Source: an uncultured Alphaproteobacteria bacterium (GTDB lineage Bacteria > Pseudomonadota > Alphaproteobacteria > Bin95). From it: a DNA stretch of 64,000 nucleotides. The notes under the pieces are model-generated. The model did not search any database and had not been told where the DNA came from. It saw only the letters and a program-made list of their open reading frames with translations. The first letter of the stretch is position 1. Every line of letters begins with the position of its first letter. Below are positions 14,900 through 63,271 of the stretch, in pieces. A program made the position numbers and the translations under genes. The stretch is taken from contig CALAHN010000088.1 of NCBI GenBank assembly GCA_937891825.1, positions 50,009 through 114,008 of the forward strand. The letters run 5' to 3'.

Positions 14900-15693
14900 T
14901 GGCGCACAATGAGGCCTTGATTCGGCTGCCCGATGGCGCCGGGCTCTGGACCCGGGATTCCGGCGGGGACGGCCCGGCGGTCGTGTTTGCGCACCCGCAT
15001 TCCGGCAATCATTGCTCCTGGGAAGCGCAGTGGCCGGCATTCGTCGCCGCGGGGTATCGCGCGGTCGCATATTCCAGGCGCGGCTACTATCGCTCGGACC
15101 CGGTTCCGGAAGGCGCCTGCCCGAGCCAGAGCGCGGATCTCGCCGCTTTGCTGGATGCGTTGGGGATCGAGCGTAGCCACGTCGTCGGCAGCGCCGCCGG
15201 GGGTTCGACGGCGCTGGACTTCGCGTTAGCCTTTCCGGCGCGCACCGTGTCTGCAGTGATCGCCTCCAGCCTGATGAGCATTGACGAGCCCGATTACAAA
15301 GCCGCGTCGGCGCGCGCCCGCGGGCCCTGGTTCGAAAGCTTGCCGATCGAAGCCCGCGAACTCAGCGCCTCCTTTCGCGCCATGGACCCCGAGGGGGCCG
15401 CAGCCTGGCGGGCGATCTATGACTTGAACGGCTTTGGAGCGAACGGCCGGCCGCGCGCGCAAAGGCTGCAATCGTCGATCGACTGGAAGACGCTTGGAGC
15501 CAATTCGCGGCCGTTGCTGTTGATGACCGGCGCTGCCGACCTCTATCTGCCCCCCGCGTTGCTGCGGGCTGTCGCGCCGCGGATTGGCGCCGCGCAAGCG
15601 GTGGTCGCGGCCGATGTCGGCCATCCGATCTTTGCCGAGGCGCCGGCGCTGTTCAACGCAAGCGTCCTGGCGTTTCTCGCAAGTCATGCTTAG
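14899..15693 (+). CDS. alpha/beta-fold hydrolase
   Basis: 264 aa with HPHSGNH and a nucleophile-elbow-like GSAAGG. GTG start overlaps the upstream stop by 1 nt. Confidence 0.65.
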   Translation: MAHNEALIRLPDGAGLWTRDSGGDGPAVVFAHPHSGNHCSWEAQWPAFVAAGYRAVAYSRRGYYRSDPVPEGACPSQSADLAALLDALGIERSHVVGSAAGGSTALDFALAFPARTVSAVIASSLMSIDEPDYKAASARARGPWFESLPIEARELSASFRAMDPEGAAAWRAIYDLNGFGANGRPRAQRLQSSIDWKTLGANSRPLLLMTGAADLYLPPALLRAVAPRIGAAQAVVAADVGHPIFAEAPALFNASVLAFLASHA

Positions 15694-24663: not shown

Positions 24664-24802
24664 CGGCGAATGCAGCTTCGATGTCGACCTGTGACGCCAT
24701 GTCCGGTGCCAGCGGCCTTGCGCGCCCGCTTGGGCGCGGGTACAAGGCCCGCTTCCGAGGGTTGGCCATCATTGCCGACCGCGCCCGTGTTGGATCCGAA
24801 AA

Positions 24803-26381: not shown

Positions 26382-26425
26382 CTGGTTGCCGCAAGCCCGC
26401 GGATCAGCCGCCCGTCAGATAGACT

Positions 26426-26459
26426 GAACCCTCTCAGGCTTAACCGCCCGAGAGGGTTC
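26426..26459. terminator. bidirectional hairpin between ferredoxin and flgH
   Basis: Perfect 10-bp stem GAACCCTCTC/GAGAGGGTTC with a 14-nt loop, followed by TTGAATT. Sits between convergent genes. Confidence 0.5.
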
Positions 26460-26464
26460 TTGAA

Positions 26465-48786: not shown

Positions 48787-50301
48787 ATGGCGATCGCTGC
48801 GGCCAATGCGGAAGACTATACGTCCCTGCAGCGCGGCCTGATTCTCGCGACAGCGACGCTCGCGACCACTCTCTATGCGACGACGATCCTGGTCGTCAGC
48901 GTGATCCTGCCGCAAATGCAGGGCGCGCTGTCGGCGACCCAGGACCAGATCGCGTGGGTCGTGACGTTCAACATATTGGCGACAGCGGTCGCGACGCCGC
49001 TCACCGGGTGGCTCGCGGGCCGGTTCGGCCGGCGCCAGACCATGATTTTCAGTCAGACCGGCTTCATGCTGGCGACGCTGGCTTGCGGCCTCGCGCCCAA
49101 TCTCGAGTTTCTGGTGATCGCGCGCGTGTTTCAGGGGGCGTTCGGCGCGCCGCTCGTGCCGCTGGCGCAAGCGACGATCCTCGATAGTTTCCCGAAGTCG
49201 AAGCAGGCGTTCGCCACGTCCGTCTTCGGCATGGGCGTCGTGATCGGGCCAGTCATCGGGCCGGTGCTCGGCGGTTATCTGGCGGATATCTATAACTGGC
49301 GCTGGGCGTTCTTCATGATCGTGCCGGCGGCGGCGGCGGGCGTCGCGGGCCTGATGCTGTTCCTGCCGGACAGCCGGACGCGCGCCACAACCCGCCTCGA
49401 CTGGACGGGGTTCCTGACTTTGGTGATCGCCGTCGGCGCCATGCAGTTGATGCTGGACCGCGGCAACCGGCAGGACTGGTTTCAATCCTTCGAGATCCTG
49501 ATTGAAGCTGGCATCGCCGTCCTGGCGATGTATCTGTTCATCGCCCATAGCATGACGACCTCGAAGCCGTTCCTGAATTTTGAGCATCTGACGGACCGGA
49601 ATTACGTCCTTGGGCTGATCTTTGTCTTCATCTACGGGATGCTGAATTTCACCCCCATGGTGCTGTTCCCGCCGATGTTGCAGGGATTGCTCGGGTTCCC
49701 GAACCAGGTGATCGGGGAGTTGCTGGGCGCCCGCGGGGCCGGCGCTGTCCTGGGGTTCTTTTCAGCGATGTGGATCGGCAAGCTCGACGTGCGCATCGGG
49801 CTGATGTTCGGCTGTCTGGTACAGGCGGCGTCGGGCCTCTGGATGATGAGCTTTTCGCTGGACGTCTCGTTTTATGAGGTTGCGGTCGCGAGCGCGCTTC
49901 AGGGTTTTTCGGTCGGCGTCATCTGGCCGCCGCTGACGGTGGCGACGTTCCGGACCATCAATCCGCAATATCTGGCGGAGACCTCGGCGATCTTTCATCT
50001 GCTGCGGAATCTCGGCTCATCGGTCTTCATCAGCTTGTCGGTGACGATGCTGGTGCGGTCGACGTCCATGAACTATGGCCGGCTCATGGAGTTCATCACG
50101 CCCTATAACAAGAACCTGAAGGCCGCGATCCAAAGCGGCGCCGCCGATGTCAGCGCCGCCGATGGCTTGGCGCGGGTCAGCGTCGCCGTGGCGCGGCAGG
50201 CGAGCATGCTGGGTTTCCTTGACGCTTTTGCGCTCTATACTGCCGCTAGTTTCGCGATGTTCCTGATGATCCCGCTTTTCAAGATCCGCAAGAACGCATG
50301 A
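48787..50301 (+). CDS. MFS transporter, DHA2 (EmrB/QacA) family
   Basis: 504 aa, ~14 predicted TM helices. MFS motif GRFGRRQ after TM2. Confidence 0.85.
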   Translation: MAIAAANAEDYTSLQRGLILATATLATTLYATTILVVSVILPQMQGALSATQDQIAWVVTFNILATAVATPLTGWLAGRFGRRQTMIFSQTGFMLATLACGLAPNLEFLVIARVFQGAFGAPLVPLAQATILDSFPKSKQAFATSVFGMGVVIGPVIGPVLGGYLADIYNWRWAFFMIVPAAAAGVAGLMLFLPDSRTRATTRLDWTGFLTLVIAVGAMQLMLDRGNRQDWFQSFEILIEAGIAVLAMYLFIAHSMTTSKPFLNFEHLTDRNYVLGLIFVFIYGMLNFTPMVLFPPMLQGLLGFPNQVIGELLGARGAGAVLGFFSAMWIGKLDVRIGLMFGCLVQAASGLWMMSFSLDVSFYEVAVASALQGFSVGVIWPPLTVATFRTINPQYLAETSAIFHLLRNLGSSVFISLSVTMLVRSTSMNYGRLMEFITPYNKNLKAAIQSGAADVSAADGLARVSVAVARQASMLGFLDAFALYTAASFAMFLMIPLFKIRKNA

Positions 50302-51103: not shown

Positions 51104-52321
51104 TCAGTCGCGGAGCTCGGCGCAAGCTTTCTGGATGCGCTCGCCGCCCCGGATCAGGTCTTCGGTGGTCGCGACGAAGCTCGCCCGGAAATAGGGCGAC
51201 AGGCCGTAGGCCGCCCCTTGAACCACGGCGACGCCCGCATGGTTCAAGAGGTACATCGTAAAATCCGTGTCGTCCTTGATGACCGATCCGTCCGGCGCTG
51301 TCTTCCCGATGGCGCCAGCGCAATTGCAGTAGCAGTACATTGCGCCTTCCGGCAGGTCGCAGTGCAGCCCCGCCGCCTTGTTGAGCGCTGCATGCAGGAT
51401 ATCGCGGCGGCGCTGGAGATCGGCCGTCCGTTCCAGGATCAGATCCTGCGGCCCGGTCAAGGCCGCGATGGCGGCCGCCTGGCCAATGGCCGAGGAGCCG
51501 GCGGTGGACTGGCTCTGCATTTTCGCGGCGTTGGCGATGATGTCCTTTGGCCCGCCGGCGTAGCCGACGCGCCAGCCGGTCATGGAAAACGCCTTCGAGA
51601 CACTGTTGACCGTCACCGTCCGGTCCTTCAAGCGCGGCTCGACCGCCGCGATGGTGTGGAACGTGCGGCCGTCGAAGATCAGATGTTCGTAGACGTCGTC
51701 GGTGATGATGTGCACGTGGGGATGGCGCAACGCCACATCCGCGATCGCCTGCAATTCATCCTTGCTGTAGACGACGCCCGCCGGATTGGACGGCTGGCAC
51801 AGCATCAGCCATTTCGTCGCAGGCGTGATCGCCGCCTCGAAGTCCTCCGGCGCCATGCGGAAGCCCCGGTTCTGGGGGCAATCGACGAAGACCGGCGCGC
51901 CGCCCGCAAGCTGCACCATGTCCGGATAGCTCGCCCAATAGGGGCTCGGGATGATGACCTCATCGCCCTGTCCGACAGTCGCCATCAGAATGTTGAACAA
52001 CACCTGCTTGGCGCCCGAGCCGACGCAGATTTCATCGAGCTTGTAGTCCAGGCCGTTGTCGCGGCGGAATTTCAGTTGGGCGGCGGCGCGCATGTCCGCC
52101 GTGCCGTTGATCGGCGTGTAGCGCGCTTCATCCCGGTCCATCGCCTGCATGACCGCCCATTTGACGTGGAGCGGCGTCGCAAAATCAGGCTCGCCCGCCG
52201 TCAGTTTGACGATGTCCTTGCCTGCCGCGACAAGCTCCCGGACCCGCTGCGTGGCGATCTGGCTGGGGGAGGGTTTGAACCGGCTCATCCGGGGGGCGAA
52301 GAAGCGCTCGCGGGCGGTCAT
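51104..52321 (-). CDS. aspartate/aromatic aminotransferase (class I)
   Basis: 405 aa with PLP-lysine context SVSKAFSMTGWRVGY. Confidence 0.85.
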   Translation of the reverse strand: MTARERFFAPRMSRFKPSPSQIATQRVRELVAAGKDIVKLTAGEPDFATPLHVKWAVMQAMDRDEARYTPINGTADMRAAAQLKFRRDNGLDYKLDEICVGSGAKQVLFNILMATVGQGDEVIIPSPYWASYPDMVQLAGGAPVFVDCPQNRGFRMAPEDFEAAITPATKWLMLCQPSNPAGVVYSKDELQAIADVALRHPHVHIITDDVYEHLIFDGRTFHTIAAVEPRLKDRTVTVNSVSKAFSMTGWRVGYAGGPKDIIANAAKMQSQSTAGSSAIGQAAAIAALTGPQDLILERTADLQRRRDILHAALNKAAGLHCDLPEGAMYCYCNCAGAIGKTAPDGSVIKDDTDFTMYLLNHAGVAVVQGAAYGLSPYFRASFVATTEDLIRGGERIQKACAELRD

Positions 52322-52381
52322 AGGCGTTCCTTAATTGGAGTGAGGCCGCTAGACTATCGGATAGAATTTAAGGAGCAAGCC

Positions 52382-53323
52382 ATGGCGAGACCGATCACCC
52401 TGGGCGCCGCGCAGATGGGTCCGATTCAACTGGCGGAAGGCCGTGACGTCGTCGTCGATCGCATGCTCGCGCTGATGGAACGGGGCCGGCGGAAGGGCGT
52501 CGAGCTGATCGTCTTTCCGGAACTTGCGCTGACGACCTTTTTTCCGCGCTGGTACCACGAGGACTGGGACCATGTAGATCAATGGTTCGAGAGCGAGATG
52601 CCCGGTCCCGCGACCCAGCCCCTGTTCGACAAGGCCCGCGAATGCGGCATGGGCTTCTATCTTGGCTATGCCGAAAAATTCGAGGAAGCCGGCAAGGTCC
52701 GCCGCTTCAATACCTCGATCCTGGTCGACAAATCCGGCGCCATCGTCGGCAAATATCGCAAGGTGCACCTGCCGGGCCATGTCGAATTTGACAAGGCCTT
52801 GCCCTGGCAGCACCTGGAGAAGCGGTATTTCGAGGTCGGCGATCTGGGGTGGCCGGTCTGGCGGACGATGGGCGGCGTGATGGGCATGTGCCTCTGCAAT
52901 GACCGTCGCTGGCCGGAAACCTATCGCGTCATGGGCCTTCAGGGCGTCGAACTGGTGATGCTCGGCTACAACACGCCGGTCGGCAACAGCCGCGGACCCG
53001 AAGCGCCGCATCTCAGGATGATGCATAATCATATGTCGATGCAGATGGGCGCTTATCAGAACGGAACCTGGGTCGTCGGCGTCGCCAAGGCCGGGAACGA
53101 GGATGGGTTCGAACTGATGGGCGGTAGCATCATCGTGGCGCCGTCGGGGGAAATCGTGGCGCAGGCGCGCACGCTCGGCGATGAATTGATCGTCGCCGAC
53201 GCCGACCTCGACGCCTGCAATTTCAACAAGAGCACGATCTTCAATTTTGCCGCGCACCGCCGGCCGGAGCATTACGGCATCATCACCGGGCAGGCCGGCG
53301 CCACGCCGCCGCCCGAGGCATAG
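52382..53323 (+). CDS. N-carbamoyl-D-amino-acid hydrolase (D-carbamoylase, nitrilase superfamily)
   Basis: Start at MARPITLG (52382); the track ORF is a long in-frame 5' extension. Near-collinear with Agrobacterium D-carbamoylase (FPELALTTFFPRW, RRFNTSILVDKSG, GKYRKxHLPGH, CNDRRWPE). Confidence 0.85.
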   Translation: MARPITLGAAQMGPIQLAEGRDVVVDRMLALMERGRRKGVELIVFPELALTTFFPRWYHEDWDHVDQWFESEMPGPATQPLFDKARECGMGFYLGYAEKFEEAGKVRRFNTSILVDKSGAIVGKYRKVHLPGHVEFDKALPWQHLEKRYFEVGDLGWPVWRTMGGVMGMCLCNDRRWPETYRVMGLQGVELVMLGYNTPVGNSRGPEAPHLRMMHNHMSMQMGAYQNGTWVVGVAKAGNEDGFELMGGSIIVAPSGEIVAQARTLGDELIVADADLDACNFNKSTIFNFAAHRRPEHYGIITGQAGATPPPEA

Positions 53324-53325
53324 CC

Positions 53326-53982
53326 GTGACCCGACATGTGCTGGTGGTCAATCCGAACCGCACGGCAAGCTGCACGGCGGCGATCGATCGCGCGGCCGCG
53401 CCGTTCCGGATAGCCGGCATCGAGATCGTTTGCGAAACCGTGGCGGCTGGACCGGTCAGCGTCGCGTCGATGGCCGATCATGCCCGGGCGCAGGGCCCGC
53501 TGATCGACTATCTGGCCGCGCGCAATGGCCCGGTCGATGCTGTGGTCATCGCGTGTTTTTCCGACCCGGCGCTTGCCGCCGCCCAGGAAGTTACCGGCGC
53601 GCCATGTTTTGGGCTTGGCGAGGCCGGCATGCTGGCGGCGACCCAGCGGGGCTTGCGCTTCGGCGTCGTGGCGCTCGCGGAAGCCTCGGTCGCCCGCCAG
53701 CGCCGCCGCGTCGCGGAGCTTGGCCTGCAAGCGCGCTATGCCGGCAGCCGGGCGATTTCCTTGAGCGTCCCGGAATTGGCCGATGCGGACCGGACCGTGG
53801 CTGCGATGATCCAGGCCGGGCGCCGGTTGGTCGATGAGGACGGCGCCGATGTGATCGTGATGGGTTGTGCGGGCATGGCGGACTACCGCCAGGCGCTCGC
53901 CGAAGCCATCGGCGCGCCCGTGGTCGAGCCGACCCAGGCCGCCATCGGCGCCGCCGTCGCCGCGGCGCTTCAGGGCTGGTGA
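53326..53982 (+). CDS. Asp/Glu/hydantoin racemase family protein (hydantoin racemase-like)
   Basis: 218 aa with VLVVNPNRTASCTAAI N-terminus typical of hydantoin racemases and two conserved Cys regions. GTG start 3 nt after the carbamoylase stop. Confidence 0.7.
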   Translation: MTRHVLVVNPNRTASCTAAIDRAAAPFRIAGIEIVCETVAAGPVSVASMADHARAQGPLIDYLAARNGPVDAVVIACFSDPALAAAQEVTGAPCFGLGEAGMLAATQRGLRFGVVALAEASVARQRRRVAELGLQARYAGSRAISLSVPELADADRTVAAMIQAGRRLVDEDGADVIVMGCAGMADYRQALAEAIGAPVVEPTQAAIGAAVAAALQGW

Positions 53983-53989
53983 GCGGCAA

Positions 53990-54092
53990 GAGCATGGCGC
54001 GTCCAAGTGGACGCGCGGTCCATGCTCTACTTTATTGATATCGATCTAATTATCCAGTCTGAGGCGTTTCCGCCTAAGACTGGTTTGATCTA
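53990..54092 (+). repeat. ~100-nt two-hairpin intergenic repeat, copy A
   Basis: AGCATGGCGCGTCCAAGTGGACGCGC...CCATGCTC hairpin, then TTGATATCGATC and CCAGTCTGAGGCGTTTCCGCCTAAGACTGG hairpin. Matches copies at 56112 and 61827 (inverted). Confidence 0.75.
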
Positions 54093-54097
54093 AGCTT

Positions 54098-55180
54098 CTA
54101 GGAGCCGGCCAGACGGCGCTCGGCGTCCTCCCAGAGCGACCTGACGATGTCGCCCGCCGGGAGAGCCGCGGCGCGGCCGGCGGATTGCCCGGCCCAGGCT
54201 TGAATGCGATCGATATCGTTGGTTTTGGCGCCCAGATCGCGCATGGCCTGGCTGAGGGCGCGTTGGACGGGGTAGGGCGCTGGCTCCGGCGCGCCGGGCG
54301 CCGCCGCGGCTTCGGCATAGGCTGTCCGGATGCTGCGGCCGGCGCGGCCGGAAAAGGCCCGCGTCAGCATTGTGTCTTCCGGCGCCGCGCCGCCGATCGC
54401 GTCGCTCCAGGCCTGGGGCAATCCGGCCTCGGGCGAACGAAGGAGGGCCGTGCCGATCTGCACGGCGGAGGCGCCCAGCATGAGCGCCGCCGCGACGCCG
54501 CGTCCATCGGCGATGCCGCCCGTCGCGACGACCGGCACGGCGACCGCATCGACGACGGCCGGCAGCAAGGCGAACAGGCCGATCGCACGGTCGGCGGCGT
54601 CGGCCGCATTGAAGGCGCCCCGGTGTCCGCCAGCCTCGGCGCCCTGGGCGACAATCACGTCCGCGCCGGCGGATTCAGCGCTTCGGGCCTCGCCGACGGT
54701 CGTGGCGTTGGCGAACCAGGCGATGCCGCGATCCTTCAGTTCGCGAACGAAGGCTTCAGGGTAAACGCCCATGATCGATGAGATAATGGTCGGCCCGGCA
54801 TCGAGCATCGCAGCGCATTGCGCTTCGAAATCCGGGGGCGCAGCGTCGGCTGCTTCGCGCGGGACGGCCGGCCCCCAGCTCTCGAGGAAGGCGCGAATGT
54901 CTGCTTCATGCCGGGCGTCGCGCTTGGGCGGCGGATCCGGGATCCAGAGGTTCATCTGAAAGGCGCCGTTGGTCTCGGCCCGGACGTCGGCCGCCCATTT
55001 CCGAATGGCGTCCGGCTGCATCAAGAGCGCGCCGCAGCCGCCAAGGCCGCCAGCGCGCGCGACCGCCGCCGCCAGCCCCGGCGGACAGGCGCCGGCCATG
55101 GGCGCCATCAGGATCGGGATCTCCAGGTCGAACCGCGCGACGAAAGCCTTGGCGCGCGCGAGGGGGGTCAGATGCTGCAT
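54098..55180 (-). CDS. nitronate monooxygenase (NMO/2-nitropropane dioxygenase family)
   Basis: 360 aa FMN TIM-barrel with NMO N-terminus (IPILMAPMAGACPPGLAAAVARAGGLG). Confidence 0.85.
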   Translation of the reverse strand: MQHLTPLARAKAFVARFDLEIPILMAPMAGACPPGLAAAVARAGGLGGCGALLMQPDAIRKWAADVRAETNGAFQMNLWIPDPPPKRDARHEADIRAFLESWGPAVPREAADAAPPDFEAQCAAMLDAGPTIISSIMGVYPEAFVRELKDRGIAWFANATTVGEARSAESAGADVIVAQGAEAGGHRGAFNAADAADRAIGLFALLPAVVDAVAVPVVATGGIADGRGVAAALMLGASAVQIGTALLRSPEAGLPQAWSDAIGGAAPEDTMLTRAFSGRAGRSIRTAYAEAAAAPGAPEPAPYPVQRALSQAMRDLGAKTNDIDRIQAWAGQSAGRAAALPAGDIVRSLWEDAERRLAGS

Positions 55181-55216
55181 GATGCTACTCCTTGGCGCCG
55201 GTTTGGCGCGGACGTT

Positions 55217-55678
55217 TCAGACAATGCCAGCCTCCAGCGAGGCGGCCATTGTGGCGCCCAGCTCGGCGCAATCCTCTTCGAAGGACGCCTGATAGGGACC
55301 CCGACAGACAAGCGGCGGGCGAACGGCGCGCCAGCGGAGCCCCGTCACGATCCGCTCGACCCCGCGCGCCGTGCCCGTGCCGTCGCTGCCGGCGCGGATA
55401 AAGAGGGCATAGGGCAGCCCGTCCGTCCGGCCGATGGCTCCGTAGTAGGAGCGGTCGAAGAAGTCCTTCAACGCGCCGGACATGTAAGCCAGGTTTTCTG
55501 TCGTGCCGAGGATGAGCGCATCCGCCGCAAGGATGTCTTCCGGCCCGGCGTCAAAGGCATGACGCACCGCGACTGCGACGCCGCCGATATCCGGATGGCT
55601 CGCGCCGCGCCGCACCGCCGCCAGCATGGCGCGGGTATTCGGCGACGGCGCGTGGGCGACGACCAGAAGCCGCTTCAT
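55217..55678 (-). CDS. flavodoxin-like fold protein (NAD(P)H-dependent FMN reductase-like)
   Basis: 153 aa; starts MKRLLVVAHAPSPNT with flavodoxin-fold pattern. Confidence 0.55.
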   Translation of the reverse strand: MKRLLVVAHAPSPNTRAMLAAVRRGASHPDIGGVAVAVRHAFDAGPEDILAADALILGTTENLAYMSGALKDFFDRSYYGAIGRTDGLPYALFIRAGSDGTGTARGVERIVTGLRWRAVRPPLVCRGPYQASFEEDCAELGATMAASLEAGIV

Positions 55679-55930
55679 TTGGATCTCGACAGATTAGCCA
55701 GCATCCTGGGTCCTTAAAGGCAAGACAGATGCCCCGACAGACTGGGACCTAACGCCATCTTGTGATAGGATCAATATTACGCGCTTGAATGTATGTTTGG
55801 CGCGTCGCCGCTGGAGCGCTCGGCGCCTTGCGTGGGACGCCAGAGAGTGCGGCGAGTTCAGTGTGTTAGATTGCTTGTCCCTTTCCGGCGATTTTGCCGG
55901 AAGGCGGCTTGATCTGAGGAGGACCAGTTC

Positions 55931-56107
55931 ATGCGTCGCTTCTTTCTGATCGTATCCGCGGCTGCGGGCCTTGGTTTCGCGGCAGCCCCCGTCATGGCGG
56001 AAAGCCCGAAAGCGCCAGCCCAGTCCGGCGCCTCGACACAAGGCGCCCAGGGCGGCGGCTGCGCCGGCGAATACCCGATGCCGAAACAATCGAAGCCGAC
56101 CGCCTGA
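55931..56107 (+). CDS. 58-aa predicted secreted peptide (unannotated small ORF)
   Basis: Own translation: MRRFFLIVSAAAGLGFAAAPVMA|ESPKAPAQSGASTQGAQGGGCAGEYPMPKQSKPTA. GGAGG Shine-Dalgarno sits 11 nt upstream. Below the 60-aa cutoff of the ORF track. Confidence 0.35.
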   Translation: MRRFFLIVSAAAGLGFAAAPVMAESPKAPAQSGASTQGAQGGGCAGEYPMPKQSKPTA

Positions 56108-56111
56108 TCTG

Positions 56112-56206
56112 GAGCATGGCGCGCTCGGGCGACCGCAGGGCCCATGCTTCAACACATTGATATCGGTCAATTCATCCATTCTCAGGCGTTATTGCCTGAG
56201 TTTGGC
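56112..56206 (+). repeat. ~100-nt two-hairpin intergenic repeat, copy B (diverged)
   Basis: AGCATGGCGCG...CCCATGCTTC, then TTGATATCGGTC and CCATTCTCAGGCGTTATTGCCTGAGTTTGG. Same orientation as copy A. Confidence 0.65.
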
Positions 56207-56214
56207 ATGACCTG

Positions 56215-56661
56215 CTATTCGGCCCGAAATTTGGCGTGACAGCCGCCGCAAGCGCTGACGAGCGCCTTGAATGCGGCGGGCGTCTGCTCTGCGGCGAGAC
56301 TGCGCGCGGCGTCCGCCAGGGCGACGGCGCTGGCGGTGAATTCGGGCCATTCCGTCCAGATTACTGGCTTTGCTTCGCTCATCCCGTCGTGTTCGCCCTC
56401 GGGGAAGAGTGCTGTCATATGCACGCCTGCGCGCTGCTCGATCGCTTGCGCCGCCTGCCGCACGGCGCCCGCATCGTTCCCGAGCGCGGCTTTGATGGTC
56501 TTTACCGATTTGGCCATGACCGTCATGGCCTCCATCCGCTCCAGGACGATGCCGGACGCCCCCTCGTGGCCGCTTGCCGCGCCCGACGCCCCCAGCATCA
56601 GCGCCGTCAAACTGGCGACGGCGAACGGGCGGACGGTCTTGCCGCTTCGCTGGCCCATCAT
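56215..56661 (-). CDS. cytochrome c' (class II cytochrome c)
   Basis: Signal peptide, four-helix-bundle-length protein (148 aa), C-terminal haem site CGGCHAKFR. Confidence 0.8.
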   Translation of the reverse strand: MMGQRSGKTVRPFAVASLTALMLGASGAASGHEGASGIVLERMEAMTVMAKSVKTIKAALGNDAGAVRQAAQAIEQRAGVHMTALFPEGEHDGMSEAKPVIWTEWPEFTASAVALADAARSLAAEQTPAAFKALVSACGGCHAKFRAE

Positions 56662-57782
56662 CGCTCCCGGCCCGTACGCCGGTCCAGCGCTTCCAGCGCA
56701 GTTTCGGTTCCCGCGATCAAGTCCGCCATGATGGCGGCTGCGGGGCGGCGGCGTTCGACCATGCCGATGCCTTGCCCGGCGGCGTTCATGAACAGGTCCC
56801 AGCGCCCGGCGGCTTTCGTCGCTTCCAGGAAGTCCTCCATCAGGACCCGCTGATGGGGCGTCGGCAGCGGATCGAGGCCGGAGGCCGCCCAGGCTTCCGA
56901 GACGGGATTGCGCCTGGCGCGCAAGGTCTTGCCCGTCCAGGCGCGGGTGACGTCCATGTCGGACGACTTGGCGGCGATCAGTTCGTCCTTGCAGGCGTCC
57001 GGCAGGTCGCCTTCATCGGCAGTCAGGAACAGCGAACCGAGCCAGACGCCGTCCGCCCCAAGCGCCAGGGCGGCGGCGATGCCGCGGCCGTCGGAGATGC
57101 CGCCGGCGGCGATCACCGGCAAAGGGGCGACCGCATCGACGACCTGGGGGATCAGCGGAAAGTTTGCGATCCGCCCTGTGTGCCCGCCGGCTTCCGTGCC
57201 TTGGGCGACGACGGCGTCAACGCCCGCGGCGGCCTGGCGTTGGGCGTTTCGAGGCGAGCCGACAAGACCGAGGGTCGTCATGCCCTGCGCCTTCGCCCGG
57301 CCGGTAATCCGCGCCGGATCGCCGAGGCCGGCGGCGAACACAGGCACCTGTTCCTCCAGGGTCACGGCGATCTGAGCTTCGATCAATTCCGAAGAAATCA
57401 CGATATCGTCTTGAACCGGCGTGGCTTTCAGGTTGAAGCGCTCCAGCAAGCTTTCGTAGAAGCGCACATGCTCCGGGTGATTGCGCGCCAGATCGTCCCG
57501 GACGCCGGAGCGGGTCGCGGCCGCTGGCGCCAGGGTGGCCGGCAAAAGCAGATCGACGCCGAAGGGCTTGTCGGTCAGATCGCGCACTGCATGAATCCGG
57601 CGCCGGATTTCCGCAGGCGACAGGCCGGAGCAGCCTAGGACGCCCAATCCCCCCGCCTTGGACACTGCGGCGACAAGCGCCGGCGGCGTCGCCATGCCCC
57701 AGACGCCCATCCCGGCCAGGATGATCGGCGTTTCGATCCCCAGCAGATCGCAAAGGGGCGTGCGGAAACGGTTTGCAGTCAT
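56658..57782 (-). CDS. nitronate monooxygenase family protein (second NMO paralog)
   Basis: 374 aa with IILAGMGVWGMATPPALVAAVSKAGGLGVLG N-terminus. Overlaps the cytochrome c' start. Confidence 0.85.
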   Translation of the reverse strand: MTANRFRTPLCDLLGIETPIILAGMGVWGMATPPALVAAVSKAGGLGVLGCSGLSPAEIRRRIHAVRDLTDKPFGVDLLLPATLAPAAATRSGVRDDLARNHPEHVRFYESLLERFNLKATPVQDDIVISSELIEAQIAVTLEEQVPVFAAGLGDPARITGRAKAQGMTTLGLVGSPRNAQRQAAAGVDAVVAQGTEAGGHTGRIANFPLIPQVVDAVAPLPVIAAGGISDGRGIAAALALGADGVWLGSLFLTADEGDLPDACKDELIAAKSSDMDVTRAWTGKTLRARRNPVSEAWAASGLDPLPTPHQRVLMEDFLEATKAAGRWDLFMNAAGQGIGMVERRRPAAAIMADLIAGTETALEALDRRTGRER

Positions 57783-57842
57783 GATGGAACTCCGATTGGG
57801 CCGGTCTGGCCCGATTGCAATGATGGGGGCAGGCGGGATGCG

Positions 57843-58487
57843 TTAGCGGGTGCCGTAAAGCCGGTCGCCGGCGTCGCCGAGGCCGGGGACGATATAGCCG
57901 TGGTCGTTCAAGCGCGCGTCGATGGCGGCGACAAAGAGGTCGACATCGGGATGTTCGGTATGAAAGCGCGCGATGCCTTCAGGGGCGGCGAGCAGCGCCA
58001 CGAACCGAATGCGCCGGGCGCCGCGCTGCTTGATCTGCCGGACGGCATGCGCGGCCGAATTGCCCGTCGCCAGCATGGGATCGACGACAAGCGTCAGCCG
58101 CTCGTCCAGGAGGTCCGGGGCTTTCATGTAATACTGGACTGCGGCCAGGGTTTCCGGGTCGCGATAGAGCCCGATATGGGCGACCCGGGCGCTTGGCATG
58201 AGATCGAGCATGCCGTCGGCGAGACCGAGGCCGGCGCGGAGAATCGGCGCGATGCAAAGCTTCTTGCCGGCCAGCGTCGGCGCGTCCATCGGGCCGAGCG
58301 GCGTGTCGATCACGGCCGTCGTCAGGTCGAGGTCGCGGGTCACTTCATAGGCGAGCAGCATTCCGACTTCCCGCATCAGGCGCCGGAAGGTCTGGGCGCT
58401 CGTGCGCTTGTCGCGCATGATCGAGAGCTTGTGGAGGATCAGCGGGTGGCGGACTTCATTCACCGGCGAGGTCATGGGCGCGCGCAA
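57843..58487 (-). CDS. upp: uracil phosphoribosyltransferase
   Basis: 214 aa with PRPP-binding motif ([13 protein letters not shown]) and Upp C-terminus ([16 protein letters not shown]). Confidence 0.9.
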
Positions 58488-58494
58488 TCCTTCC

Positions 58495-59670
58495 CTATTC
58501 GGCGGCGGACGCTTGGCCGCGCCCCGTGAAGCGCGGCATCACGTCGGCGGCGAAGCGCTCGAGCTGTTCGATCATAACGGCGCCAGGCGTCCCCATGCTG
58601 GATTGCACGTTGACATCTTCCAGGCCCGGAAACTTTTCCTGCAATTCTTCGAGATAGGCGACGAAGCCATCGGCGGGGCCGCAATACCAGGACCCGGTTT
58701 CGACGGCGCGCGTCAGCGTCGGGATCCCGGCGTCGTCCCAGCCGCCGCGTTCGCCGAGACGGCTCATCTGCGCATCGGTCATCGGCACCATGCCAAGCGG
58801 CGCGAACATCTTCAGATGCTCCTCGAAGTAGGGCGTGGCTTCTCTGATCGCCTGCTCCCGCGTCGGCGCGATATGGAAGTTGAGGCCGAGGCAGAGGTTC
58901 TGGCCAAGCGCGACGTCATGGCCGGCGCGCTCGTAAGCTTCCTTGAAGGCGACGATAGGGCGCTCCGCCATCAGCGCCGATCCGCCGCCGACGATGCCCT
59001 TGATGCCGTGCTTCGCCATGAAATCCAGACCGCGCGGCTTGGCGCTGACAATCGGCTGCCAGCATTCCGCGCCGCGATAGAGCGGGCGGGGCACCAGCGT
59101 CAGATCCTCGACCCTGTAACCGCGATAGGGCACGTCCGGCGGCAGGTCATAGGCTCTGCCCCGGTGGGCGAAGCGGTCGGACGTCAGCGCTTTCAGGATA
59201 ATCTCGACCTGTTCCTCGAACAGATCGCGATTGGCGTCTGCGTCCTGCAGAACGCCGCCCAGGCTTTCGACCTCGCGGGTGTGATAGCCCCGGCCGACGC
59301 CGAAGATCACCCGGCCCCTGGTCAGGATATCGGCGGTCGCATAATCCTCGGCCAGGCGGAGCGGATGCCACATCGGCGCGACGTTGAAGCCGCAGCCGAA
59401 ATTCAGCCGCTTCGTGACATGGGCCAGATGCACGAAGAACAGCGGCAGGTTCGGAATGCACTCATAGCCTTCGCGCTGGAAATGATGCTCAGCCATCCAA
59501 AGCGCGTGATAGCCAAGCCGGTCCATGGCGACGGCCATCGCCTCGGCCTTGTCGAACACTGTCGCAAGCGCTGCATTGTCATAGAGCCTGTCGTTGGCCG
59601 GCGTCGCCAGTTGGCCCATGTCTTCAAGGTCGATATGGCCGGCGAAGAGGCTGGCGATCCGCTTGATCAT
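58495..59670 (-). CDS. LLM-class flavin-dependent oxidoreductase
   Basis: 391 aa luciferase-like monooxygenase pattern (WMAEHHF, GVGRGY). Confidence 0.85.
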
Positions 59671-60896
59671 TGGTCCTGCTCCTGCGGTTTGCCGAAGGCG
59701 CCGGCGCTGCGGAGATCGGCGACCTTCTCGTCCGAATAGCTCAGCACGCCCGCCAGAATCTCCGCCGTGTGCTGCCCAAGCCGGGGCACTTCGGTCGGGC
59801 GGACGACCGGCGTTTCGGAGAATTTGAGCGGCGAGGCGACAAGCTGCACGGTCTCGCCGTCGAACCCGACGGGCGCCAGCATGCCGCGACCGGCCGCTTC
59901 AGGCGATTGCACCGCTTCAAGCGGCGAGCGGACGGCGCCGCCCGGCACCCCCGCCGCGCGCATCGCCTCGACCCAGTGCTCGCGCGCGTTCGTCAGGAAG
60001 ACAGCTTCAATCTCCGCCTCCAGGGCGTCGCGATTGTTCATGCGGTCCGTCAGTGTGGCATAGCGCGGGTCGGTCAGGAGGTCCGGCCTTTGCAGCACGT
60101 CGCGGGCAAACTTCGTGAACTGCCGGTTATTCCCGACGACGATCATGATCGGTCCGTCGCTGCACTGGAACACGCCCAAGGGGACCAGGGCATAGGACTT
60201 GTTGCCCATGCGCGGCGGGTCCTCGCCGGTCAATTGCGCGTGGGCGCCGACATAGCCAAGCGCCGAGAGCATCGAATCGAACAGGGAGACTTCGACGAAC
60301 TGGCCTCGTCCCGTGCGGTGGCGGGCGTTCAGGGCGCCCAGCACCGCCATGCCTGCATGCAGGCCGGTAAAGCTGTCGCCAATCGAGCCGCCGGCTTTCT
60401 GCGGCTCCATCTCGCGGGGGCCGGTCAGGTACATGATGCCGGTTTCCGCCTGGGCGATCGGGTCATAGCCCGCCACCAGCCGGAAGGGGCTGGTGTGGCC
60501 GTAGCCCGAAATCGAGCAATAGATCAGGCGCGGATTGATTTTGGAGAGCGCCGCGTAATCGATGCCTTGGCGCTCCATTACATCCGGGCGGAAATTCTCG
60601 ACCACGATATCCGCCTTGGCCGCCAGGTCGAAGATCACGGAGCGCCCGGCCTCAGAGGTTATATCGATCTCGATGCTGCGCTTGTTGCGATTAAGGCCGA
60701 CAAAGCCCGGCGCATCCTTGGTCCACCCGGTCGGCCGGTAGTGGCGCATGTCGTCGCCGACGCCGGGCGCTTCGACCTTGATGACATCCGCGCCCATATC
60801 GGCCAGCATCTGGGTCAGGAACGGACCGGCGATAACGCGCGTGAAGTCGAGAACGGTCAATCCGCTGAGCGCGGCTTCGGGCAGGTCTTTGTTCAA
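59667..60896 (-). CDS. CoA-transferase family III (CaiB/BaiF) protein
   Basis: TTG start (60896..60894) preceded by AGGGAGAA RBS. LNKDLPEAALSGLTVLDFTRVIAGP is the canonical N-terminus; 409 aa. The track's 602-aa ORF is a 5' over-extension. Confidence 0.8.
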   Translation of the reverse strand: MNKDLPEAALSGLTVLDFTRVIAGPFLTQMLADMGADVIKVEAPGVGDDMRHYRPTGWTKDAPGFVGLNRNKRSIEIDITSEAGRSVIFDLAAKADIVVENFRPDVMERQGIDYAALSKINPRLIYCSISGYGHTSPFRLVAGYDPIAQAETGIMYLTGPREMEPQKAGGSIGDSFTGLHAGMAVLGALNARHRTGRGQFVEVSLFDSMLSALGYVGAHAQLTGEDPPRMGNKSYALVPLGVFQCSDGPIMIVVGNNRQFTKFARDVLQRPDLLTDPRYATLTDRMNNRDALEAEIEAVFLTNAREHWVEAMRAAGVPGGAVRSPLEAVQSPEAAGRGMLAPVGFDGETVQLVASPLKFSETPVVRPTEVPRLGQHTAEILAGVLSYSDEKVADLRSAGAFGKPQEQDQ

Positions 60897-60992
60897 GGCG
60901 TATTCTCCCTTTGAACCAAGTCTAGGCGAGGCCGGGCATGGCGGGCAATCGACCGGCGCGACGTCCTGGCGGCGCTGACAGGGGGGACGGGC

Positions 60993-61829
60993 ATGACGTA
61001 TTTCAATGAACAGCCGCTTGGCGCGCCGATCGGCACGGAGATTGTCGATCTGGATCTTTCGGAGCCATTGAGCGACCGGGCGTTCGCCGCGCTCGGCGAG
61101 GCCTTTGCGCGCCACCCCGTGCTGGCGTTTCGCGGCCAGACATTGGCTGCGGACCGCATGAGCGCGTTCGCCCGCCGGTTCGGGCCGATCATGGCGGGGG
61201 TCGATCCGAAATACCGGCATCCGGACACGCCGGAAATCTCGTTTCTGACGAATGTCGATCAGGACGGCGGCGTCGATCAGTTCGGGGCGCGCCGCGCGTC
61301 GGCCTGGCATTATGACGGCAGTTTTTCGACCGCGCCGCCGGCCGCCGCCATGCTTTACGGGATCGAGCTGCCTGCGATCGGCGGCGGCACCGAGTTCGCC
61401 GATACGGCGCGCGCGCTTGAGCGCCTGCCAGCCGCGCTTCGCCAACGCATTGAGGGCCTTCAAACGGTCAATCATTTCGGCCTGGGGCCGGAGGGCAGGG
61501 ACTATTATGACGGTCTGACGCCGGAGCGTTGGGGGCAGTATCGCCCGGTCCGGAAGCCATTAATTTTAGCACATCCGAAGACCGGCCGGCCGGGTCTGTC
61601 CTTCTGCATGATCCACACGGCAGGCATCGCCGGCATGCGCCATGGCGAGGCCGCCGAACTTCTCCGTGAGTTGCTGGCCCATGTCGCCCAGACGGACAAT
61701 GTCTACTATCACCGCTGGCGGCCGGGCGATGTGGTGCTGTGGGACGAGCATGCGACCATGCACCGGAACGCTGGCGATTTCCCGCCAGCGCAGCGGCGCA
61801 TCATGTTGCGCGCCATGATGCTGCCCTAG
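60993..61829 (+). CDS. TauD/TfdA-family Fe(II)/2-oxoglutarate dioxygenase
   Basis: 278 aa with WHYDGSF (His-x-Asp facial triad) and a C-terminal His region. Confidence 0.85.
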   Translation: MTYFNEQPLGAPIGTEIVDLDLSEPLSDRAFAALGEAFARHPVLAFRGQTLAADRMSAFARRFGPIMAGVDPKYRHPDTPEISFLTNVDQDGGVDQFGARRASAWHYDGSFSTAPPAAAMLYGIELPAIGGGTEFADTARALERLPAALRQRIEGLQTVNHFGLGPEGRDYYDGLTPERWGQYRPVRKPLILAHPKTGRPGLSFCMIHTAGIAGMRHGEAAELLRELLAHVAQTDNVYYHRWRPGDVVLWDEHATMHRNAGDFPPAQRRIMLRAMMLP

Positions 61830-61926
61830 ATCAAATCAACCTTAGGCGGAATCGCCTAAGGTTGGATAATTTGATCGCTATCAATAAGATAGAGCATGGC
61901 GCGTCCACTTGGACGCGCCATGCTCT
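61827..61926 (-). repeat. ~100-nt two-hairpin intergenic repeat, copy C (inverted relative to A/B)
   Basis: Reverse complement reads AGCATGGCGCGTCCAAGTGGACGCGCCATGCTCT...TTGATAGCGATC...CCAACCTTAGGCGATTCCGCCTAAGGTTGG, ~88% identical to copy A, with compensatory stem changes. Confidence 0.75.
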
Positions 61927-61957
61927 AGGCCGCCGCCGCTTAGCCTATCGGCAGTTC

Positions 61958-63271
61958 TCAGGCGGGCGCGTCATCTTCAGGGCTTGCCGCGGCTGTCGCT
62001 GGATGCACCGGGCTTGGGCGGATCGTGCCCCGGCAGGCGCCGAAGCCGATCCTGTAGCCGTCGCCCTTGGCCGCGCCGCGGAGGGTGACCGCGTCGCCAT
62101 CCTCCAGGAACCGCCGGGCCGCGCCATCCAGATCGAGCGGCTCCGCGCCGTTCCAGGTCAGTTCGAGCAACGAGCCGCAGCTATCCCGCGTCGGGCCGGA
62201 AATCGTGCCGGAGCCAAGGAGATCGCCGATGTTCATGGCGCAGCCGCATGCCGCATGATGCGCCAACTGCTGGGCGGCGGAGAAATACATGTGCCGGAAG
62301 TTCGTGCGGCTGATGACATGCTCCTTGCCGCCAGCCGGGCGGAGGCTGATTTCCAGATTGATGTCGTAAAGCCCCGGCGCGCTTTCCTGCAGGTAAGGCA
62401 GCAGAGGCTTTTCTGGCGGCGGGGCGGCGAGGCGGAACGGCTCAAGCGCTTCCGCCGTCACAACCCAGGGCGAGACCGTCGTGGCGAAGGCCTTCGCCTG
62501 GAAGGGGCCGAGCGGCTGGTATTCCCAGACCTGAAGATCCCGGGCCGACCAATCGTTCAGCAGAACGAACCCGAAGATCATGCGGGCGGCTTCCTCCGTG
62601 GTGATCGGCGTCCCCATGCGGCTTGGCGCGCCGACGATAGCGCCCATCTCAAGCTCGATATCGAGGCGCTCGGACGGGCCGAAGCGCGGCGCCGCATCGT
62701 CCGGGCCCTTCAATTGCCCAAGCGGCCGGATGACCGGCGTATCGGAGACCACGACTGTCGAAGCGCGGCCGTTATAGCCGATCGGCATGTGGAGCCAGTT
62801 CGGCGGCAAGGCATTCTCAGCGCCTCGAAACATCGTGCCGACATTCGTCGCGTGCTCGCGTGAGGCATAGAAATCGGTGTAGCCCGATATGGCGAACGGC
62901 AGGTGGAGGTCCGCCTGCTCCATGGGCACGATCGTCGCCTGGATTAACTCCGGGTCATCCCGCAGCCGGGGCTCGTCGGCGGAGAGCAGGCGGGAGAGCA
63001 TGGCGCGCGTCTCCGACCATACCTCCGGGCCGAGCGCCATGAAGTAGTTCAGGCAGGGCTGCGCGAAGACGGACCCGTCCTTGTCCGGGTCGGCCGCGTA
63101 TTCCAGGGCCGCCATGTCGACGATCTGATCGCCGATGGCGACGCCGACCCGGCGGTCCCGGTCGTCGGTCGAGAACACGCCGAACGGCAGGTTCTGGATC
63201 GGGAAATCGCTCGCGGGGTCGTTGGCGCTTTCGATCCAGGATTTGAGCGCGGGATCATGGGTCGGGTTCAT
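61958..63271 (-). CDS. fahA: fumarylacetoacetase
   Basis: 437 aa with FAH N-terminal and C-terminal catalytic domains (SWIESANDPASDFPIQNLPFGVF..., GDLLGSGTISG). Confidence 0.9.
   Translation of the reverse strand: MNPTHDPALKSWIESANDPASDFPIQNLPFGVFSTDDRDRRVGVAIGDQIVDMAALEYAADPDKDGSVFAQPCLNYFMALGPEVWSETRAMLSRLLSADEPRLRDDPELIQATIVPMEQADLHLPFAISGYTDFYASREHATNVGTMFRGAENALPPNWLHMPIGYNGRASTVVVSDTPVIRPLGQLKGPDDAAPRFGPSERLDIELEMGAIVGAPSRMGTPITTEEAARMIFGFVLLNDWSARDLQVWEYQPLGPFQAKAFATTVSPWVVTAEALEPFRLAAPPPEKPLLPYLQESAPGLYDINLEISLRPAGGKEHVISRTNFRHMYFSAAQQLAHHAACGCAMNIGDLLGSGTISGPTRDSCGSLLELTWNGAEPLDLDGAARRFLEDGDAVTLRGAAKGDGYRIGFGACRGTIRPSPVHPATAAASPEDDAPA

Follow-up and report, generated by a model that had tools for sequence, protein, structure and literature searches.

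Why should three junctions between convergent genes, all on one stretch of an uncultured alphaproteobacterial genome, carry the same pair of hairpins? The stretch, hereafter the window, comprises 64,000 nucleotides (positions 50,009 to 114,008 of contig CALAHN010000088.1, assembly GCA_937891825.1), and an earlier note on its sequence had pointed to three copies, A, B and C, of a repeat of about 100 nt that might act as terminators, be akin to repetitive extragenic palindromic (REP) sequences or transposable elements of the miniature inverted-repeat type (MITEs), or encode small structured RNAs. Reading and alignment confirmed all three copies at essentially the coordinates claimed, each of them between convergent genes, and they belong to a multicopy family that has sharp TA ends and is absent from relatives. 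We conclude that A, B and C are probably non-coding, non-autonomous mobile repeats of ~101 bp, specific to one lineage and built of two unrelated palindromic modules, hairpin 1 (H1) and hairpin 2 (H2). The three copies are laid out as follows.

53990-54090, plus strand: copy A, a 101-nt core with H1 (53990-54027), a linker (54028-54042) and an extended H2 (54043-54090)
53988-53989 and 54091-54092: flanks of copy A, AA (a decayed TA) and TA, respectively
56112-56212, plus strand: copy B, a 101-nt core with H1 (56112-56149), a linker (56150-56164) and H2 (56165-56212)
56110-56111 and 56213-56214: flanks of copy B, TG on both sides
61829-61925, minus strand: copy C, a 97-nt core with H1 (61925-61892), a linker (61891-61877) and H2 (61876-61829)
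61927-61926 and 61828-61827: flanks of copy C, TA at both ends

Copies A and C, which had been described as ~88% identical, agree at 86 of 97 aligned bases (88.7%, or 85% with the 4-nt indel in H1 counted) and are the longest inverted repeat in the window in a repeat search; copy B is the most diverged of the three (69% identity to A and 69% to C). With two covariance models, A, B and C are the only sequences in the 64 kb to score as full copies, at 91-124 bits and E values of 1e-22 to 1e-29 (123.5 and 117.8 bits for A, 104.3 and 90.9 for B, 119.8 for C). When folded, each copy forms two hairpins on either strand, with z scores of -3.3 to -11.3 relative to shuffled sequence. Copy A folds with -50 kcal/mol (z of -5.9 on the plus strand and -7.7 on the minus strand) and copy C with -69 kcal/mol (z of -11).

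The two halves of the element are unrelated in sequence, each being its own palindrome, and they are joined by a 15-nt AT-rich linker (..ATTGATA(T/G)CG) that contains a small palindrome of its own, TTGATAGCGATCAA. H1 has the form GAGCATGGCGCGTCC-loop-GGACGCGC(GGT)CCATGCTC, shared by A, B and C as GAGCATGGCGCG...CCATGCTC. Its stem is 15-17 bp long and it occurs either as a 38-nt form with a CGGT bulge or as a 34-nt form without it, copy C having the short form. H2, which has the form GATCAAAttatCCAACCTTAGGCG-loop-CGCCTAAGGTTGGTTTGATC, reads G(A/G)TC..ATCCA..AGGCG-loop-(C/T)GCCT..TTTGA(T/C)C in the three copies and combines a 13-bp stem with a 7-bp extension. This hairpin is longer than was first claimed, reaching GATC(A/T)AA...TTTGATC, and in this outer part copy B is compensated as GGTC...GACC. 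Across the family, the core measures 97-105 nt and H2 falls into four subfamilies (CCAACC, CCAGTC, CCAATC and CCATTC). As for coding capacity, five of the six reading frames contain stop codons.

Subfamily membership bears on one suggestion made earlier, that the inverted pair A and C, which brackets a 7.7-kb block, took part in a past rearrangement. Copy A belongs to the CCAGTC group with the long H1 and copy C to the CCAACC group with the short H1; each is closer to a copy at a metagenome locus (numbered with an L below) than to the other, A being 95% identical to L052:9836-9944 and C 98% identical to L029:4244-4348, as against only 85-89% between the two. In addition, relative to fahA, the CoA-transferase gene just inside the block is oriented alike in the window and in a relative at 75% identity. 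Nothing thus supports the suggestion, and A and C as arms of a composite or invertible 7.7-kb unit were rejected on the same two observations.

How far does the family extend? A scan of metagenome contigs for the central motif recovered 25 loci, 23 of them on separate contigs of a single assembly, ERZ888423, whose coverage (10.4-12.7x) points to one genome. The other two, L032 and L051 (Ga0302325/Ga0302326), were discarded as chance matches, with 51% G+C, a tetranucleotide r of ~0.5 and no model match. In the 223 kb of ERZ888423 loci, ~27 copies reach full length in the covariance model, scoring 72 bits or more, and another 7-8 are partial or diverged; together, the selected loci and the window hold ~35 copies in 287 kb, on at least 20 contigs. 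As one related metagenome genome adds 30 copies or more, the notion of a REP/MITE-like repeat family is borne out. Pairwise identity between copies reaches 99%, and the repeat is the sole sequence shared between the ERZ888423 loci and the window. The loci nevertheless match the window in composition (tetranucleotide r = 0.997, G+C of 65.8 versus 64.8%), more closely than do relatives (r = 0.975-0.978), and the same sample series holds contigs of both kinds, some matching the window at 99.7-100% identity and others identical to an ERZ888423 locus. The organism behind ERZ888423 and that of the window are therefore most likely one species. Six short-read contigs (L055, L058, L059, L061, L063 and L064) end within a copy; the repeat breaks short-read assembly and thereby limits contiguity for this organism.

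Outside this organism, searches for the element returned nothing beyond chance. An exact-motif scan of 185,579 reference genomes, one per species, found only 22 single, isolated matches from unrelated phyla, close to the number that chance predicts for 22 specified bases. A blastn search with copy A found no repeat match in 72,556 plasmids and megaplasmids, rhizobial replicons included, and a search of the plasmids with a 12-kb region returned distant gene-level matches only. In viral contigs, the central pattern had no match and the H1 pattern two chance matches in coding sequence. There was no match in Rfam 15, either at gathering thresholds for the whole window or at E<=1 for 53900-56300, nor was the element found at the corresponding loci of relatives with 71-75% protein identity. 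The fumarylacetoacetase beside copy C is 100% identical only to proteins from metagenome contigs, the next relatives standing at 75%. The family thus appears to be confined to one uncultured freshwater alphaproteobacterial lineage.

The ends of the unit are sharp. Aligned in register, the copies read Y-TA-(GAGCATGG...TTGATC)-TA-R, with TA before GAGCATGG in 22 of 33 copies and after GATC in 28 of 32. The next base outward is C or T in 29/33 copies on the left and G or A in 31/32 on the right, and there is no conservation farther out. The termini match one another only as CTAGAGCA and CTAGATCA (7 of 8 positions, TA included) and are otherwise unrelated, so the element appears to have no real terminal inverted repeats. 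Beside the complete copies, the metagenome loci hold several variant forms.

L031:4935, L036:9148 and L038:1654: solo H1 units
L028:10142: H1 and linker without H2
L028:559: copy truncated at its 5' end
L045:4464: hybrid, with an H2-like hairpin in place of half of H1
L037: partial 3' duplication
L041: nested copies, the young one starting exactly at the TA that ends the older one

These forms indicate that the two halves are separable modules. At one locus (L036:9242-10016), two inverted copies with their H2 ends inward bracket a single 135-aa gene (L036:9346-9753) for a DUF4332 helix-hairpin-helix protein; a solo H1 (L036:9148-9181) lies ~60 nt upstream of the pair. The layout is REPtron-like, yet the bracketed gene is not that of a transposase.

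The most telling feature of the ends is their relation to stop codons. The genes that border A, B and C, whose families were taken from the Pfam annotation of identical public contigs, are listed here.

Stop TGA at 53980-53982, plus strand: Asp/Glu racemase gene, left of copy A and 7 nt before its core
54098..55180, stop at 54098-54100, minus strand: NMO gene, right of copy A
55931-56107, stop at 56105-56107, plus strand: 58-aa signal-peptide-like open reading frame (ORF) with a GAGGAGG ribosome-binding site, left of copy B
Stop at 56215-56217, minus strand: cytochrome c' gene, abutting the right flank of copy B
60993..61829, stop TAG at 61827-61829, plus strand: TauD gene, at the H2 end of copy C
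Stop TGA at 61958-61960, minus strand: fumarylacetoacetase (fahA) gene, 30 nt upstream of the TA at the H1 end of copy C

The convergent setting described in the earlier note (racemase/NMO, 58-aa ORF/cytochrome c' and TauD/fumarylacetoacetase) is therefore correct. The TAG stop of TauD consists of the TA that flanks the H2 end of copy C plus the complement of the last base of the element, and copy A lies 6-7 nt from both neighboring stops. Across the family, with genes at the metagenome loci called by a simple GC3-based caller that reproduced public annotation at gene 3' ends, the concentration at gene 3' ends holds. Of the 30 copies flanked on each side by a called gene, 14 have convergent neighbors and just 2 divergent ones; the other 14 have co-directional neighbors, with H1 facing the upstream gene in 8 cases and H2 in 6. 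The stops of 21 genes are made of the flanking TA and either the first base of the element or the complement of its last (19 TAG, 2 TAA), and at L050 both convergent genes use TA plus an element base as their stop. Elements touching a stop codon number 19/37, compared with 23% of unoccupied non-coding YTAR sites. Where stop and element do not overlap, the stop is mostly TGA (16/26) and the element usually lies 5-43 nt downstream. The racemase gene, with its TGA 7 nt before copy A, fits this pattern of TGA genes followed by the element within a few bases.

Genuine ORFs that run a few codons into an element number only two: at L043:7827-7851 and L031:9530-9554, genes read 7-8 codons into H1 and owe both their C-terminal residues and their stop codon to the element. 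An NMO-family gene ending in the copy at L040/L060 encodes 320 aa, its homologs (65-74% identity) having 319-320 aa, and TauD ends at copy C within a few residues of the C termini of its homologs. Both checks indicate that the stops at copies occupy native positions. In a 74%-identity relative (L065/L066), the gene order cyclase-NMO-x-SBD_N...DUF1028-adh_short is conserved, and the corresponding site, with a TAA stop, a 22-nt spacer and no model match, is an empty one at roughly the distance of a genus. An unoccupied YTAR site of the predicted type, comparable to L050, lies in the window itself at 15690-15693, where two convergent stops overlap in TTAG (TAG on the plus strand, TAA on the minus strand).

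These observations suggest how the family might have come to lie where it does. The unit would enter TA in a YTAR context, mostly CTAG, and end up with TA on both sides. In a genome of 65% G+C, harmless TA sites would be concentrated in TAG and TAA stops and in the few bases after them. With G as the first and C as the last base of the element, a gene arriving from either side would meet TA followed by G, so that a TAG or TAA that is hit would be rebuilt as TAG. Tolerated TA sites at stops, together with this rebuilding by the end bases, could account for placement exactly at convergent junctions with no function invoked. Elements of the IS630/Tc1-mariner type also duplicate TA. The insertion sequence (IS) IS711 of Brucella duplicates TA at YTAR (PMC2266754).

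Is the double-hairpin structure itself maintained? We aligned 30 copies to the model and examined its 37 stem pairs. Standard pairs occupy 95.1% of the cells, and two-sided changes occur at 18 of the 37 pairs, in 48 cells, well above the controls (5.3 pairs and 9.9 cells in shuffles, 0/500; 3-8 with slid partners), although these counts overstate the number of independent events, as the copies were aligned by fit to the structure and whole subfamilies inherited several of the states. The preservation of pairing by compensatory changes, proposed in the earlier note from the three copies, is thereby upheld. Two of its examples need amending: the paired substitutions in H2 are real, but the arm of copy C reads AGGTTGA and not AGGTTGG, leaving the outermost pair broken, and the stem CTCAGGC...GCCTGAG of copy B is present but belongs to the inner part of H2 and not to the positions at which A and C differ, where B has two T·T mismatches. 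Unique compensated variants occur in both hairpins, at L043:7747, L050, L033:1123, L047:5513 and copy B of the window. A population variant, G to C at window position 61895 in the 3' arm of H1 of copy C, breaks a pair; it is found in four independent assemblies (L023, L054, L056 and L057) and not in the window or L053. With 16 G·U cells as against 20 A·C cells, wobble pairs are not in excess, and the sense transcript hence shows no sign of a constraint of its own. The pattern fits constraint acting on the palindrome as DNA, constraint on both transcripts, or templated correction from arm to arm. Within the mechanism proposed above, such strand-symmetric compensation would reflect either a DNA palindrome needed by the mobilizing or copying machinery or transcripts of both strands.

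The last of these options could in principle remove the need for selection altogether: templated repair in quasi-palindromes, in which intra-strand template switching copies one arm to the other, would create paired changes, and founder effects would spread them. States common to whole subfamilies (CCAACC, CCAGTC, CCAATC), so that few events cover many cells, agree with such a process, and copying between arms is in keeping with perfect Watson-Crick symmetry in which wobble intermediates are few. We nonetheless find this account quite improbable, for a wobble intermediate does exist (L034, CCAATCT...AGGTTGG), many unique compensated variants arose independently in both hairpins, and correction is not automatic, decayed copies gathering uncompensated mismatches and the polymorphism in copy C breaking a pair. 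Should the pairing then serve the host? Read in the sense orientation, CUAUCUUAUUGAU comes after H1 and UUUGAUCUA after H2. By a simple terminator consensus, both hairpins of copy C are terminator-like on the minus strand, which is the element sense, with tails TCTTATTGAT and ATTTGATCTA; in copy A, only the inner H1 sub-stem at 54007-54023 is called, not the full bulged hairpin, and in the reverse orientation no match to the same consensus was found. The copies could accordingly be bidirectional terminators or mRNA 3'-end stabilizers selected by the host, the family being kept, and perhaps spread by recombination, with mobility incidental or absent. Their frequency at convergent junctions and rarity at divergent ones would agree with this, as would hairpins that begin 0-43 nt after stops, T-rich tails in the sense orientation, very stable structures on both strands and conserved pairing. 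We still judge it unlikely as the explanation of the family. Although only the sense orientation matches the consensus, copies with one gene reading in show no orientation preference (8 versus 6), contrary to what one would expect under selection for termination; only ~3 of the 7 convergent junctions in the window carry a copy, and the one at 26421-26460 has an ordinary hairpin with a T-tract instead; and TA-bounded ends, nesting, truncated and mosaic forms, near-identical copies at unrelated loci and absence from relatives are all transposon-like and left unexplained by termination, and purifying selection by itself would also lead to location at 3' ends. Interference with translation termination has been reported for REPs near stop codons. 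A stable hairpin directly after the stop, with a U-rich tail in the sense orientation, would probably form a 3'-end barrier, as terminator or mRNA stabilizer, and likely affects transcript 3' ends and perhaps translation termination; this looks like a side effect of insertion and not the cause of the family's spread. Small structured RNA genes, whether trans-acting small RNAs or cis-regulatory elements of 3' untranslated regions with hairpins selected at the RNA level, would share the strong covariation and, in the sense orientation, the terminator-like last stem with its U-rich tail, and small RNAs derived from MITEs are known in Coxiella (PMC10969869, PMC5896051). We consider a dedicated small-RNA family, as raised in the earlier note, very improbable indeed: no promoter-like site was found in 53000-63000 and no Rfam family matched in the searches above; G·U is not favored over A·C; copies lie in both orientations relative to their neighbors, with ends that coincide with the stops of genes on either strand; and loops and linker hold no conserved single-stranded seed beyond the AT-rich mini-palindrome.

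Returning to the mobile-repeat interpretation, several points weigh against it as well. No base-precise empty site was recovered, the sole empty site being that in the 74%-identity relative, and no insertion polymorphism was seen among same-species assemblies, A, B, C and the L060 copies being present in every contig that spans them. The context counts are approximate, as the gene calls in the metagenome loci come from the GC3-based caller, and the identity of the ERZ888423 organism with that of the window rests on composition and co-occurrence, not on overlapping sequence. No transposase or parent IS was found in the ~350 kb examined. A self-BLAST of all loci for a parent IS gave no other shared repeat above 150 bp, only internal protein repeats, and neither a Pfam scan of the genes bracketed by copies nor the annotation of neighbors showed a transposase family. 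A duplication of TA, which together with mobility we infer from the sequence, is indistinguishable from a short terminal inverted repeat (CTAGAGCA / CTAGATCA) or from insertion by a single-strand transposase 3' of YTA, and two otherwise unrelated ends are unusual for elements moved by DDE transposases. Could the copies then be single-stranded DNA hairpins moved by a tyrosine (HUH/Y1) transposase of the IS200/IS605-RAYT/TIRYT type, with H1 and H2 as end hairpins? This would be a variant of the preferred explanation that differs only in the enzyme: insertion would target the left-flank YTA, the CTA at the right end would be part of the element, and nothing would be duplicated. Two subterminal hairpins without long terminal inverted repeats would suit it, and DNA hairpins would show no more tolerance of G·U than of A·C, as is the case here; insertion 3' of a short target would produce the junction YTA|...CTA|R just as well, and in Pseudomonas composite "double palindromic" repeats lie beside RAYT-like genes in hundreds of copies (PMC3733652). 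What makes a Y1 route doubtful is the occurrence of both orientations within single loci (the window, L033, L036, L040 and L047), the lack of orientation bias relative to local GC skew (14 versus 16, skew being a noisy proxy for replication direction), and the absence of a Y1 transposase gene among annotated neighbors, the gene bracketed by inverted copies being that of the DUF4332 protein. Elements of the IS200/IS605 type are expected to be strand-biased, and their ends usually resemble each other, whereas H1 and H2 are unrelated. The copies also have no GTAG or CGTC tag and their stems are 13-17 bp long, not 8-9 bp (PMC3733652). A bolder version of the preferred mechanism, which we regard as speculative and rather unlikely, would make the unit a stop-codon-homing cassette that prefers the TA of TAG or TAA (overlapping CTAG and TTAG included), rebuilds TAG on either side, places a double hairpin in one step and moves by means of two different palindromes and not terminal inverted repeats; if true, its insertion strategy would be a distinct one, and so possibly would its mechanism of transposition. 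Integron attC, Xer/dif-like and integration host factor sites were also considered and dropped, as the copies lie in both orientations between ordinary housekeeping genes and carry no consensus motif.

A few further features of the window, most of them picked up by the models at low scores, deserve mention. One of them may be a relic of the family.

55812-55916, plus strand: probable old, decayed fourth copy (tentative), upstream of the 58-aa ORF at 55931-56107

It retains an H2-like hairpin, TTCCGGCG-ATTT-TGCCGGAA, with a stem sequence that differs from the family, and a GGCTTGATCTGAGG end, which the GAGGAGG ribosome-binding site of the small ORF overlaps. Its covariance-model scores are weak (21.5 bits, and 16.4 bits with E 0.02), and its 3' half can be aligned with diverged family members. 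The 58-aa ORF is thus bracketed by this relic on one side and by copy B on the other. The hairpin at the convergent junction at 26421-26460, CCCTCTCAGGC-ttaac-GCCCGAGAGGG followed by TTCTTGAATT, has an inner stem similar to that inside H2 of copy B; its model match is partial and weak, at 12.9 bits. A G+C-rich hairpin at 24709-24765, GCGCGCCCGC-ttg-GGCGCGGG, scores 24 bits through an H1-like GCGCG stem and is probably unrelated. Two observations concern the genes around copy A. At 51104-53323, a 701-aa ORF on the plus strand overlaps two minus-strand ORFs of 405 and 307 aa; identical contigs are annotated with the minus-strand genes (aminotransferase, CN hydrolase), which marks the 701-aa ORF as a high-G+C shadow ORF. 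Within the NMO gene, the 26 nt at 55047-55072 are missing from a contig of the same species, ERZ27054837 (L056:8203/8204), a loss that would frameshift this gene and represents either a strain variant or an assembly error.

The host of these repeats is an abundant uncultured freshwater alphaproteobacterium, present in many lake metagenomes. New families of palindromic repeats are useful mainly for annotation, given the contig breaks and spurious small ORFs that they cause, and as strain markers. What this one adds is an unusually clean picture of a pile-up at convergent junctions in a G+C-rich genome, in which the tolerated TA sites would largely be stops and the end bases would restore the stop.

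How does the element compare with known repeats? It behaves like the small palindromic repeats described elsewhere, namely REP/BIME, Correia, RUP/BOX/SPRITE, RIME and Bru-RS. The Correia elements of Neisseria (CREE) and MITEs that duplicate TA are ~100-150 bp long, have TA at both ends, lie near gene ends and have reported effects on transcript 3' ends or stability. The likeness extends to size, to TA at both ends and to the position near gene ends; Correia elements, however, have long terminal inverted repeats and form one hairpin over their whole length, whereas in our element the ends match at 7/8 positions including TA and each half is palindromic. RIME1, RIME2 and the Sm-repeats of Sinorhizobium and Rhizobium are intergenic mosaics of ~100 bp with large palindromes (cited in PMC2573895), like the element and likewise from Alphaproteobacteria; the element itself has no match in the 72,556 plasmids and megaplasmids searched, rhizobial replicons included. 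Also from an alphaproteobacterium, Bru-RS1 and Bru-RS2 of Brucella are palindromic repeats of 103 and 106 bp found near gene ends. IS711 prefers Bru-RS as a target, which links them with YTAR/TA biology (PMC2266754, PMC10800456). They are set apart by description, as IS targets and not TA-bounded units, and the conserved blocks of our element have no match in any reference genome, Brucella included.

The resemblance to REPs lies in position and build. REP palindromes, known from enterobacteria and, in RAYT-associated GTAG- or CGTC-tagged form, from Proteobacteria, are found downstream of genes, chiefly where ORFs converge or run in the same direction and frequently no more than 20 bp from 3' ends (PMC3733652), and like our element REP/BIME sequences form mosaics with linkers and have proposed roles in termination or mRNA stability. 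A tagged REP is defined as an imperfect palindrome of 20-40 nt with an unpaired GTAG or CGTC and a stem of 8-9 bp (PMC3733652); the element, with no conserved GTAG or CGTC head and stems of 13-17 bp, falls outside this definition. Nor is it a REPIN, which pairs inverted copies of one unit, since H1 and H2 are unrelated. No RAYT gene was found among the ~350 kb examined. Closer in general habit are the RUP, BOX and SPRITE repeats, which are also short, non-coding, dispersed hairpin repeats, intergenic and mutually nesting, SPRITE resembling intrinsic terminators (PMC10969869). They differ in phylum and in sequence, the element being built of two palindromes, bounded by TA in a YTAR context and often sharing that TA with a stop codon. 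It resembles a MITE in part, through a size below the limit of ~300-500 bp, a lack of coding capacity and many dispersed copies, and by sequence it appears to have no detectable relative outside its own lineage. What sets it apart from all of these is the TA junction that would restore the stop codon, combined with a two-palindrome build that appears to lack terminal inverted repeats.

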